This document shows positions 40,702 to 56,576 of a stretch of DNA of 64,000 nt, in pieces. The DNA comes from Escherichia phage 236Ecol005PP, in the sequence record PP434423.1; one strand, given 5' to 3'. The notes beneath the pieces were generated by a model. The model did not search any database. It worked only from the letters and a program-made list of their open reading frames with translations, and was not told the DNA's origin. The position numbers and the translations under genes were made by a program. Each line of letters starts with the position of its first letter. Position 1 is the first letter of the stretch.

Positions 40702-41172
40702 TTAATCATGTTTCCACACCCCATCGGTATTTGACCAAAGTCGCTGATTATCTGAACCTCGCCACAGCTTTTTGGTCGGAAGATTTTTCTCATACTTCCC
40801 ATCAATAATAACATCAACATATTTAAGCATTTCTAGTTGTTTAATATCTTCAAACTTATATCCTGTCCACAACCAAATGCTTTTATTCGGATAAAGATTT
40901 TTTACTGTTTGAACAATGCAATGAACAACATCTCGGTTATCAGGATAAAGAGGGTCACCTCCAGTTATAGTTAATCCTTCTATATAATCATTATTCAAAC
41001 ATTCAATTAATTGTTCTAGTGTTTCACCAGTGAATGGAACGCCATTTCTAGCATTCCAAGTACTACGATTATAACAACCTTCACATTTATGCAAACAACC
41101 TGTAACGAAAAGAACGACCCTGCATCCAGGGCCATTCACAAAATCGCAAGGATAAAATCTATCATAATTCAT
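40702..41172 (-). CDS. nrdG: anaerobic ribonucleotide reductase activating protein (radical SAM)
   Basis: 156 aa; CLHKCEGC radical-SAM cysteine cluster. Confidence 0.9.
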   Translation of the reverse strand: MNYDRFYPCDFVNGPGCRVVLFVTGCLHKCEGCYNRSTWNARNGVPFTGETLEQLIECLNNDYIEGLTITGGDPLYPDNRDVVHCIVQTVKNLYPNKSIWLWTGYKFEDIKQLEMLKYVDVIIDGKYEKNLPTKKLWRGSDNQRLWSNTDGVWKHD

Positions 41173-42448
41173 TGGTGTTTAACCCTATGCATGATTTCTT
41201 TATTTTTGCCGAGATTAAATCCACGTTCGTTCGGATTTCCCAAATAACCACAAGTTCTTCTTATTGTGTTCATCTTTTTAGGATCAGTTTCTCCACAAAT
41301 AGAACAAACAAATCCGTTTTCAGTAGGAGTCATTTCATGAGTGCTTCCACACGTAAAACATTTATCTACTGGCATGTTAACACCAAAATAATCTAAATGT
41401 TGTGCAGCATAATCCCATACAGCCTCAAGACCTTTTAGGTTATTTTTCATATCAGGAAGTTCAACATAAGAAATGTGACCGCCTGTTGCAATGAAATGAT
41501 ACGGGGCTTCGCGAGAAATCTTTTCAAACGGAGTAATATTTTCTTCTACTGAAACGTGGAAACTGTTAGTGTACCAGCCTTTATCAGTAACATCCTTTAC
41601 ACTTCCATATTTTTCTGTATCAAGTTTACAGAAGCGATAGCAAAGGTTTTCAGCAGGAGTAGAATACAAGCTAAAAGCAAAACCGGTTCTTTCAGTCCAC
41701 TGCTTAAGACGAGCATTCATTTTAGTTAAAATTTCCTGTCCAATATCACGACCGACAAGAATATTCAATTCGTGAATACCAATGTATCCTAGGGACACTG
41801 AACTTCTACCGTTTTTAAATAACTCAATTATGTCGTCATCAGGTTTAAGACGAACCCCGAATGCACCTTCTTGGTAAAGAATAGGAGCAACAGTCGCTTT
41901 AACTCCTTTTAAGGAACTAATTCTACACATCAATGCTTCAAAACACAAATCCATTCGTTCATTGAACAATTCGGCAAATTTCTGTTCATTGAACTGTGTT
42001 CCAATATAAGAATCTAATGCAATACGAGGAAGATTCAGTGTTACAACACCAAGATTATTACGTCCATCAAGAATTTCATTACCAGTCGAATCTTTCCATA
42101 CGCCCAAGAAACTACGGCAACCCATTGGAGAAACAGGAATAGATGAACCAGTGATAGCTTTATTGTTCTTAGCTGAAATAATATCAGGATACATTCTTTT
42201 ACTTGCACACTCTAGAGCAAGCTGCTTAATATCATAGTTCGGATCGTCTTTATAAAGATTAACACCTTCTTCAACGAACATAACAAGTTTAGGGAAAATA
42301 GGAGTTATCCCATCACGACCAAGACCTTTAATACGATTTTTCAGAATTGCTTTCTGAATCATTCGTTCAGTCCAGTCAGTTCCCGTACCAAATGTAATTG
42401 TTACAAAAGGCGTTTGTCCGTTAGAGCTGAAAAGTGTATTTACTTCAT
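41169..42448 (-). CDS. nrdD: anaerobic ribonucleotide reductase NrdD, exon 2 (boundary approximate)
   Basis: glycyl-radical enzyme C-terminal region with C-terminal Cys cluster; 3' splice site placed after a G at 42449 so exon1+exon2 = 605 aa. Confidence 0.65.
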
Positions 42449-42474
42449 CATTATATTCAGCATGAGTCGCAAAT

Positions 42475-43246
42475 TCATGCCCGTTTATATGAAACAACAA
42501 AATTTGGATAGTCCATAGATATGCAACGTTCTTTTATAGTGCTAGGATGAAAATTTAGCGCTTTAGCTGCTTCTATATAAGACGTATACTTAATACCGTC
42601 AACAACCACATATTCAGGAACTTTATGAATAGTAGCCTTAATACTCAAAACAAGAGGATGAGTTTCGACTTCACTTTCAGTGCAATTTAAATATTCCGCT
42701 GCTTTTTTAAAACTTCTAAAAGTTTTATTTTTAAGCTTTATCGATACTTGTTTTTTACTTTTTCGACTATTGATATTATTTTGCACATGTTCCTTAGATC
42801 TTCCGTTTTTAGCATAATATTCAGCTACAGAAGATTTTATATTGTTTTTATGAGATTCGGATAACACTTTACCCTTATGAGCATCTCTTAATTTTTGAAT
42901 ATGTTCCTTCAGTATCCGGATGCTTATAAAACTTTTTACCGCCTATGGATTTATTTAAACATTTTTTGCTATAAAAATATTTACGTATGACCTCTTCTTC
43001 ATGTTTTAATGCATCTTTATAACTATCAAATGTTTTTAAAATTATCCATTTAGTAGGTGTATCAGTTTTTAAGCGTTCATTTATATACTTAGATGACGTT
43101 GTGTAAGTTTTCCAGTTTGTGGGCTTGTTTTTAATTGTTCTAAATTTTTTATAACCGATATAAATGTCGCCATTAGAAAACTTAACTAAGTATGTAAATG
43201 CGTCTTTATCTTTTATTTTAGTACAACGTCTTTTTATCCATTTCAT
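42475..43246 (-). pseudogene. intron-encoded GIY-YIG homing endonuclease (I-TevII-like), apparent frameshift near 42925-42935
   Basis: N-terminal GIY-YIG ORF (123 aa) and C-terminal ORF in adjacent frame; joined length about 257 aa; shift at GGTAAAAAGTTTT run. Confidence 0.55.
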
Positions 43247-43275
43247 TGTTTCACCTCGTATTCATAAGATAATCT

Positions 43276-43283
43276 TATTTATA
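43276..43283 (-). promoter_or_regulatory. late promoter TATAAATA inside intron, upstream of endonuclease ORF
   Basis: plus tatttata about 30 nt upstream of ORF ATG at 43246. Confidence 0.5.
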
Positions 43284-43494
43284 CAAGATGACTGCTGCAT
43301 GTCGCCATGCAGATTAGACTATATCTTCATCTTTCGATGCCGGCCGTTTCGAATAGCATTAGCTTCTATTCTACACCGCTACATTCATCACGGTTAGTCG
43401 TTAGGCATTTAGTTCAAAAGAACATTTAGCACGGGATTGTCTACTAGAGAGGTTCCCCGTTTAGACCGGTTTTACATGAGCCTGAATTAAATTA

Positions 43495-44032
43495 ACTCAT
43501 ACGCCTGGAATGCATCGTATACATCTTTTTCTGTTTTAGATTGGGCATAATTCAATGCATCTGCGATTTGCCATTTTTCCGCGTCCTCAATATGTTTCGC
43601 ATAGGTGCGTTTAACATAAGGAGAAAGTACTTTATCTACATTCGCAAAAGTCGTTCCGCCATATTGATGAGAAGCAACCTGTGCAGTAATTTGTGCCATA
43701 ATTGCAGTAGCAACGCCGATTGATTTAGGGGTTTCAATCTGTGCATTACCGAGCTTAAATCCGTTCTCAAGCATTCCTTTTAAATCTACTAAACAACAAT
43801 TAGTAAATGGAAGAGCAGGGGAATAATCAATATCGTGGAAATGGATAATTCCGCTTTCATGCGCTTTCATAATAAAAGACGGGACCATATTTTTGGCAAT
43901 GTGTTTAGACACAATACCAGCCATAAGGTCCCGTTGAGTTGGAAAAACACGAGAATCTTTATTAGCATTCTCGTTTAAAAGGTCTTTATTAGTTTTATGA
44001 ATCAATCCTTCAATTTCTTTTTCAATTGTCAT
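43495..44032 (-). CDS. nrdD: anaerobic ribonucleotide reductase NrdD, exon 1 (boundary approximate)
   Basis: N-terminal 179 codons; in-frame stop lies just inside intron. Confidence 0.65.
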
Positions 44033-56009: not shown

Positions 56010-56576
56010 TCACTTTGAAATCATAGTTGGAATGACAGAATCAAGATAAGTCTTTAGCGCAATAGCTTCGTCTTTGGTAAATGTGACAATATGTGATCGA
56101 AAATCGTCAATTTGGCGAATAGTTAAGACATCTCCATCTTCATAACATTTTGATACGTTTAAAACAGTTTCATCATTCTGATCGCACTGATCGCAAGCGT
56201 TAGTAATAATAGCATTGCAATTTTTGAGCCATTTTAAACTATGTTTTCTTTCATTAGAATAATAAAAATATTTAATCTTAGCTATAAAACTATCCCAATG
56301 AATAACTGATAAACACATTGACTCACTTTTAATATTAAATCCTGGGCATGAAGAATAAAAATGAATTTTATGCTCATCATTGATGCTTACTATTTTATCA
56401 GTATAAGGATATTCAATTTGGGTTAAATGAATGATTTCACTAGGCGTAAAATACAGCATATCGTCTTCTTGCGTCAAACGATACATGTTATTTACTTTTT
56501 CTATAGCCAATTCACCAAAAAGCGGACTAACTTCTAATACTAATCGTTTCATATTGATTCTCTTCGACTCACTCAC
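56010..56576 (-). CDS. hypothetical protein (tandem paralog 2)
   Basis: 188 aa; GTG start 9 nt after AAAGGAG SD. Confidence 0.5.
   Translation of the reverse strand: MSESKRINMKRLVLEVSPLFGELAIEKVNNMYRLTQEDDMLYFTPSEIIHLTQIEYPYTDKIVSINDEHKIHFYSSCPGFNIKSESMCLSVIHWDSFIAKIKYFYYSNERKHSLKWLKNCNAIITNACDQCDQNDETVLNVSKCYEDGDVLTIRQIDDFRSHIVTFTKDEAIALKTYLDSVIPTMISK

Follow-up and report, generated by a model that had tools for sequence, protein, structure and literature searches.

The nrdD gene of Escherichia phage 236Ecol005PP (PP434423.1) is interrupted by about one kilobase of DNA with reading frames of its own, which raises the question of what the interruption is and in what condition the gene inside it has been left. 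The window examined here is a 64,000-nt stretch of that genome, and every coordinate given below refers to it. The best explanation, to which we assign a probability of about 0.68, is that the interruption is the self-splicing intron of T-even nrdD (sunY) genes in the form of a second lineage, that a single additional G has disrupted its endonuclease gene, and that the locus stands at the degeneration stage of the homing cycle.

Two separate minus-strand reading frames, one of 181 codons (44032..43487) and one of 443 codons (42500..41169), match the Pfam NRDD family, and the matches of the two exons are consecutive on the profile. Exon 1, found in the list of open reading frames, occupies 43495..44032 (minus strand; 538 nt, 3' end ...GCGTATGAGT) and covers profile positions 1-141 with 140 bits; exon 2 (41169..42448, minus strand; 1280 nt, 5' end ATGAAGTAAAT) covers positions 145-562 with 409 bits and also matches Gly_radical. 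Joining 44032..43495 to 42448..41169 yields one 1818-nt reading frame, and precise removal of the intron thus restores the nrdD frame and a NrdD of 605 aa, which is identical to that of T4 at 600 of its 605 residues. Exon 1 measures 538 nt in both phages, and the annotated T4 join removes 1033 nt after the identical 538th nucleotide.

A 300-nt query was built from the 150 nt on either side of the predicted junction (the end of exon 1 and the start of exon 2), and 619 phage records matched it over 80% or more of its length. The predicted nrdD junction is uninterrupted in hundreds of intron-less phages, and the intron-less records among the matches listed align with the query as a single gap-free piece of 300 nt (for instance JE01, at 96% identity). 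Because the joined exons match intron-less phages without a gap, because T4 agrees, and because a slide of even one base would alter the junction sequence, the exon and intron boundaries are exact.

The public annotation of this region treats the gene differently. In the GenBank and RefSeq records of relatives that were inspected, nrdD appears as two separate coding sequences with no spliced join, and the exon-2 coding sequence begins at a TTG inside the intron, overlapping the 3' end of the endonuclease gene. The 443-aa reading frame of the window (41169..42500) reproduces this artefact. Downstream, nrdG follows nrdD directly in the window (41100-41170, minus strand) and in phage IME537, and in SA20RB, 235Ecol030PP and T4 a MobC-type homing-endonuclease gene lies between nrdD and nrdG.

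The intron itself spans 42449..43494 on the minus strand and measures 1046 nt (1045 nt without the extra G). It starts with UAAUUUAAUUCAGGCUCAU and ends with ...AAUAUAAUG, and its last base, at 42449, is a G, the terminal guanosine of the intron. When the 1.35 kb from 42300 to 43650 were searched with laxer filters, the group I intron family RF00028 of Rfam matched at 43530..43295 (minus strand) over its full model length (1-253), with 70.9 bits against a gathering score of 50 (E = 1.2e-17). A scan of the whole 64-kb window at gathering threshold and with default filters returned no Rfam family and so missed the intron, a negative result that is explained as a filter artefact by the 70.9-bit match obtained once the 1.35 kb were searched. 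Speed filters can hide group I introns that contain reading frames.

The catalytic core, from P1 to P9, lies at 43295..43494 (minus strand) and shares 49 consensus pairs with T4. P1 is formed by the internal guide sequence GGCUCAU (43476..43482, minus strand), which pairs with AUGAGU at the end of exon 1 (43500-43495; RNAalifold columns 1-7 with 19-25) through its GCUCAU, and a U.G pair between U43495 and G43481 marks the 5' splice site. The sequence-only reading had proposed a sunY-like core and this P1 pairing, and both stand. The exon and intron coordinates it gave (43495-44032, 41169-42448 and 42449-43494) agree exactly with the junction query and with T4; the group I intron it placed in nrdD sits at precisely the T4 (sunY) insertion site, as the RF00028 match and the T4 join indicate; P1 forms from exon-end AUGAGU and intron GCUCAU as it described; and the covariance-model search that it suggested gives a score above the gathering score.

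Comparison with T4 further suggests that the ribozyme has been maintained. On the RNAalifold consensus of 49 pairs, the window and T4 cores differ by 12 double (compensatory) changes and 4 one-sided changes with no pair broken, counts that describe a comparison of only two lineages and not a statistical test. The double changes fall in P3, P4, P6a, P8 and a hairpin resembling P7.1/7.2. Close to the 3' end, a hairpin of 7 bp (42459..42481, minus strand) overlaps the stop codon of the endonuclease gene and occupies the same position in T4; in four of its seven pairs both bases differ from those of T4, as determined by folding each sequence separately, since MAFFT and RNAalifold misaligned the tail owing to an indel. 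The same hairpin is retained in the natural ORF-deletion intron of phage 215Ecol030PP, which is described below. This pattern of pairs is what a ribozyme under continued selection looks like, and the intron is probably competent for splicing. With its core (43494-43295) and 3'-terminal hairpin both apparently intact, it should excise itself and restore the 605-aa NrdD.

A scan for sigma-70 promoters and terminators returned nothing relevant in the region except this 3' hairpin, re-found on the opposite strand. The core sequence is not confined to T-even phages: 43291-43481 (minus strand; intron nt 14-203) is about 74-85% identical to intron cores of unrelated phages, including Phapecoctavirus-like coliphages, Aeromonas phage 2L372D and Vibrio phages, in the last of which the intron also lies in nrdD. 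In these unrelated phages, similar cores are often paired with different reading frames (HNH or wHTH).

The gene carried by the intron belongs to the I-TevII family. Its first part is a truncated reading frame at 42875..43246 (minus strand) of 123 aa, of which 113 are native residues, comprising the GIY-YIG domain, and 10 are out of frame before a TAA stop (42877-42875). This part matches Pfam PF19835 (SegE_GIY-YIG) with 30.1 bits against a cut-off of 25, and its signature motif reads FTY...YIG, as in I-TevII. The C-terminal, DNA-binding part (NUMOD1/HTH-like) follows out of frame at 42475..42905 (minus strand), ends with a TGA at 42477-42475 and reaches 24 bits with NUMOD1, for which the cut-off is 22.8. 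Each half also has a match in PHROG 314, the 'homing endonuclease' family (E = 2.9e-15 for the N-terminal and 4.3e-6 for the C-terminal half). With the extra G removed, the repaired frame encodes 256 aa, identical to the protein of IME537 at 255 of 256 positions and collinear from end to end with T4 I-TevII (144 of 258 residues identical, 56%; tblastn E = 1e-85 with 100% coverage). A sequence search of the PDB with the intact homologue gave no match. As sequenced, the window holds no uninterrupted frame containing both domains, since a stop follows after 123 codons, and in this form the gene is a pseudogene of the I-TevII family.

The lesion was located by multiple alignment with relatives. 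It is a +1 insertion at 42906..42907 (minus strand), where the window has GG in place of a single G (GAAGGAAC against GAAGAAC); in the wider context, the window reads ACTGAAGGAACAT and four close relatives read ACTGAAGAACAT. The inserted base stands in the context GAA-G-GAA, and the frame shifts after residue 113. It lies about 30 nt downstream of the GGTAAAAAGTTTT run (~42932-42937) and outside any homopolymer run of A. The extra G is absent from all 43 phage records that hold this stretch, in which 70 nt align with the 71 nt of the window, and no gene for the exact truncated product was found elsewhere in a collection of 153 billion gene positions.

These results uphold most of what the sequence-only reading had said about the gene and move its lesion. 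The frame at 42875-43246 with a GIY-YIG domain is borne out by the 30.1-bit match, the C-terminal continuation in the adjacent frame by NUMOD1, and the presence of a frameshifted I-TevII-family endonuclease in this genome by the alignments to I-TevII and IME537; the alignment to T4 that it recommended proved collinear. The joined product, however, measures 256 aa instead of the 257 or 258 it had estimated, and the frameshift that it placed in the A-run is the +1 G at 42906/42907, the relatives being identical to the window through the A-run. It had also taken T4 as the reference for an intact gene, a choice rejected here given only 56% protein and ~66% intron DNA identity; the proper reference is the second clade (IME537, SA20RB and JB75), with 99.5-99.8% DNA identity and an intact frame of 256 codons.

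The regulatory region upstream of the endonuclease gene retains the organization known from T4. An exact copy of the T4-type late promoter box TATAAATA lies at 43276..43283 (minus strand), aligned with the promoter region of T4 I-TevII and separated by 29 nt from the ATG at 43246, where a late promoter about 30 nt upstream of the frame had been predicted; the same box is annotated as a late promoter in phage SA20RB. The 64 kb contain four copies of TATAAATA against 11.2 expected, so the box is avoided in this early/middle region. A hairpin at 43251..43291 (minus strand) covers the Shine-Dalgarno sequence GAGGUGA (43257-43251), and its 5' arm overlaps the promoter box. Its minimum free energy is -17.8 kcal/mol (z = -4.4), a value reached by none of 200 shuffled sequences. 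The equivalent hairpin of T4 has the same geometry with a shorter stem (-13.1 kcal/mol, z = -4.1), whereas in the window a 9-nt insert between promoter box and ribosome-binding site produces a longer, two-tier hairpin. As in the T4 cassette, the box is placed so that late transcripts, from their predicted start, would lack the 5' arm.

In T4, the promoters of the intron reading frames have been mapped by primer extension (as cited in PMC2988022), the mechanism by which a hairpin covers the ribosome-binding site has been described for I-TevI, II and III, and a late promoter within the intron is the known arrangement for all three intron endonucleases (PMC2988022). The promoter inside the intron, which the sequence-only reading had noted, is therefore to be expected and is no peculiarity of this locus. 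A 19-nt block, TATGAATACGAGGTGAAAC (43247-43265, minus strand), comprising the 3' arm of the hairpin and the Shine-Dalgarno sequence, is identical in T4-type and window-type introns in surroundings of about 66% identity. A homing-site-like operator at the promoter is recognizable in T4 (14 of 17 matches, reached by 4 of 500 shuffles); the corresponding candidate in the window (13 of 17, with 48 of 500 shuffles as good) is not significant and is not claimed.

Three alternative accounts of the broken frame were weighed against a real inactivating mutation. The one closest to the sequence-only reading places the shift in the GGTAAAAAGTTTT run (~42932-42937), either as a homopolymer frameshift mutation or as a site of programmed ribosomal slippage connecting the two frames. 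The run does sit within the 70 nt that the two open frames share, and AAAAAG looks like a slippery sequence. Alignment and frame arithmetic nevertheless led to the rejection of both versions, and we regard this account as the least probable of all. The G at 42906/7 is the only indel relative to the relatives, which have the identical A-run, and the eight residues encoded between the run and the extra G, FYKHPDTE, are still in the original frame, where they align with FNKYPDSE of T4. Slippage by -1 at T-AAA-AAG would run straight into a TAA codon, and the shift needed is +1. In addition, the 40 clade members listed at 99% protein identity or more each align in one unbroken piece, and so they need no recoding.

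A far more serious contender, though still clearly less probable than a genuine lesion, is that the extra G is an error of sequencing or assembly and that the phage has an intact 256-codon gene, like 40 of its 44 clade-mates, in a fully mobile intron. The lesion is a single-base insertion in one assembly, it is unique to the window (0 of 43 records), its product is on record nowhere else, and intact copies match the remainder of the intron at 99.5-99.8% identity. The private G as such fits either a recent mutation or an error. Against an error, the change is from G to GG, with no long homopolymer at the site, and the assembly shows no general indel problem: comparison with about 50 kb of IME537 gave two frame breaks, both in dispensable genes (the extra G, and a run of A5 against A4 near 56224 in a hypothetical gene), the reverse comparison gave four, and the replication and recombination genes between the two breaks contained none relative to IME537. 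Independent inactivating lesions in relatives, among them an unambiguous deletion of 567 nt, further indicate that this gene decays in nature. Taken together, we consider it probable that the gene is a real pseudogene. The remaining account accepts the mutation and supposes that the endonuclease survives in two pieces, a nuclease domain of 123 aa and a DNA-binding fragment of 130 aa whose translation restarts at a GTG (42867), with some function retained, for example as a repressor at a promoter-proximal operator-like site or in protection of the homing site. The GTG stands 8 nt past the stop with UAAGGG (an AAGGG resembling a Shine-Dalgarno sequence) just before it, NUMOD1 and PHROG 314 are still matched by the C-terminal fragment, and TATGAATACGAGGTGAA is identical in both clades; moreover, the T4 intron endonucleases have been proposed to be autorepressors that bind operators resembling the homing site (PMC2988022). 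The favourable start context is, however, fortuitous, because these bases belong to the intact gene, where they are read in frame as AHKGKV, and the operator-like similarity in the window is not significant, as noted above. Cleavage by I-TevI requires the linker between its two domains, which also counts against a divided enzyme. Survival in two pieces is accordingly judged very improbable. The truncated protein keeps the whole catalytic domain and a separate C-terminal half is possible; from the domain content, loss of endonuclease function is most likely.

The second frame break relative to IME537 concerns 56162-56564 (minus strand), where five A in the window replace four in IME537 (gp214 region) at about 56224 and alter the reading frame of a hypothetical gene close to its 3' end. 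The stop-to-stop frame of the window is the longer one there, and this site may be the other A-run frameshift mentioned in the sequence-only reading.

Two other lesions in the same intron clade illustrate how the gene is lost. In phage vB_EcoM_F1 and in FN, whose records are near-identical, an independent +A in a run of six A (equivalent to ~42709) splits the frame into 189 aa and 57 aa. Phage 215Ecol030PP (PP328843.1) carries a natural mini-intron in which 567 nt inside the reading frame, equivalent to 43202-42636 of the window, have been deleted; the remaining ~479 nt comprise the core, the promoter and hairpin, 14 codons and the last ~190 nt. These independent lesions fit decay of the endonuclease gene after fixation of the intron. 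The second of them is also the closer analogue, within the window clade, of the T4 nrdB intron, whose I-TevIII is defunct (RB3 has an intact version). That T-even group I intron continues to splice although its endonuclease gene has been inactivated, which places it at the stage of the homing cycle also proposed for the window intron (PMC2988022, PMC1865063). The two cases differ in that I-TevIII belongs to the HNH enzymes and was inactivated through a large deletion, whereas the window gene encodes a GIY-YIG enzyme and has lost its frame to an insertion of 1 nt.

The relationship of the window intron to that of T4 nrdD, which encodes I-TevII, is one of shared design and divergent sequence. 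The host gene is the same, with a product that is 99% identical, and the insertion point is identical (538 nt into the coding sequence). The parts follow in the same order: a P1-P9 core, the late promoter with the hairpin over the ribosome-binding site, a GIY-YIG reading frame of about 256-258 codons 3' of the core, and a 3'-terminal hairpin over the end of that frame. The guide sequence of P1 is GCUCAU in both. In contrast, DNA identity is ~66% in the intron against 95% in the exons, which differ from T4 by 5.1%; the encoded proteins, of 256 aa in the window and 258 aa in T4, are 56% identical; many helices of the window intron have been rebuilt through compensatory changes; and the reading frame is shifted in the window.

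The close relatives of the window intron are found in other Tequatroviruses, including vB_EcoM_IME537, SA20RB, JB75, 235Ecol030PP, SHSML-52-1, JK45, PNJ-6 and SP21535. Their introns are 99.5-99.8% identical to it in DNA and occupy the same site between the same flanking genes, with gene 49 upstream; what sets them apart is the single G at the 42906/7 position. A single intact frame of 771 nt (256 codons) is present in IME537, SA20RB and 235Ecol030PP. A tblastn search with the repaired frame separated the homologues into two discrete groups, 44 records at 95% identity or more and about two dozen at ~56%, the latter including T4, RB59, PST, fPS-2, G8 and U5, with no intermediate among the 76 phage records. 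Within the first group, 40 of the 44 records are at least 99% identical at the protein level. Judged from these alignments, the window intron is a second, deeply diverged lineage at the insertion site known from T4, and one that is common in sequenced Tequatroviruses (about 44 records).

Among phages with the window-type intron, the intron diverges by 0.1-0.6% and the nrdD exons by 2.9-4.1%, a disparity that argues for recent horizontal spread by homing. Where relatives that carry the intron differ synonymously, the differences are concentrated in exon sequence at most about 40 nt from the insertion site (42411-42426 and 43502-43523, minus strand); co-conversion tracts or variation of the target site may have left this pattern. 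From position +8, the exon-2 target reads AAATACACTTTTC in the window and GAACACGTTATTC in T4. It is conceivable, although we hold it to be rather doubtful, that the window-type enzyme has its DNA-binding specificity tuned to a different synonymous variant of the exon-2 target, that the two introns compete and are not cross-immune, and that the frameshifted copy is losing this contest.

The following course of events is proposed for the intron with a truly broken gene. The intron would excise itself from the nrdD pre-mRNA, as its covariation and the T4 precedent suggest, and NrdD would be made. Normally, the frame located 3' of P9 would supply a 256-aa, two-domain enzyme of the I-TevII family, with an N-terminal GIY-YIG domain and a C-terminal NUMOD/HTH-like DNA-binding domain. 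By analogy with T4, the hairpin would hide the ribosome-binding site of the endonuclease gene in the nrdD pre-mRNA, and transcripts from the TATAAATA late promoter inside the hairpin would lack the 5' arm and be translatable. The extra G would reduce their product to a 123-aa nuclease domain without its DNA-binding domain, so the endonuclease is most likely dead and the intron would no longer home by its own enzyme. It would nonetheless persist, since it still splices and is rarely lost precisely, and since nrdD would be destroyed by any imprecise loss. The locus would thus represent the degeneration stage of the life cycle of a homing endonuclease.

Much of this was known. The intron variant is present in dozens of GenBank genomes, and its reading frame is annotated as a homing endonuclease in the relatives inspected; the element is ordinary and well understood, and new biology is not demonstrated. 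What is new is modest: a private frameshift allele and the explicit observation of two deeply diverged I-TevII lineages at one insertion site. For annotation, nrdD in this phage is one spliced gene and not two, and the two small reading frames within it are the halves of one decayed homing-endonuclease gene. The second I-TevII clade, at the same site and with 56% protein identity, offers a ready comparison for how GIY-YIG enzymes retain or change their target specificity. More broadly, the locus provides a clean natural example of the homing cycle, in which the intron is near-invariant and three independent lesions, in different phages, have disabled its endonuclease gene.
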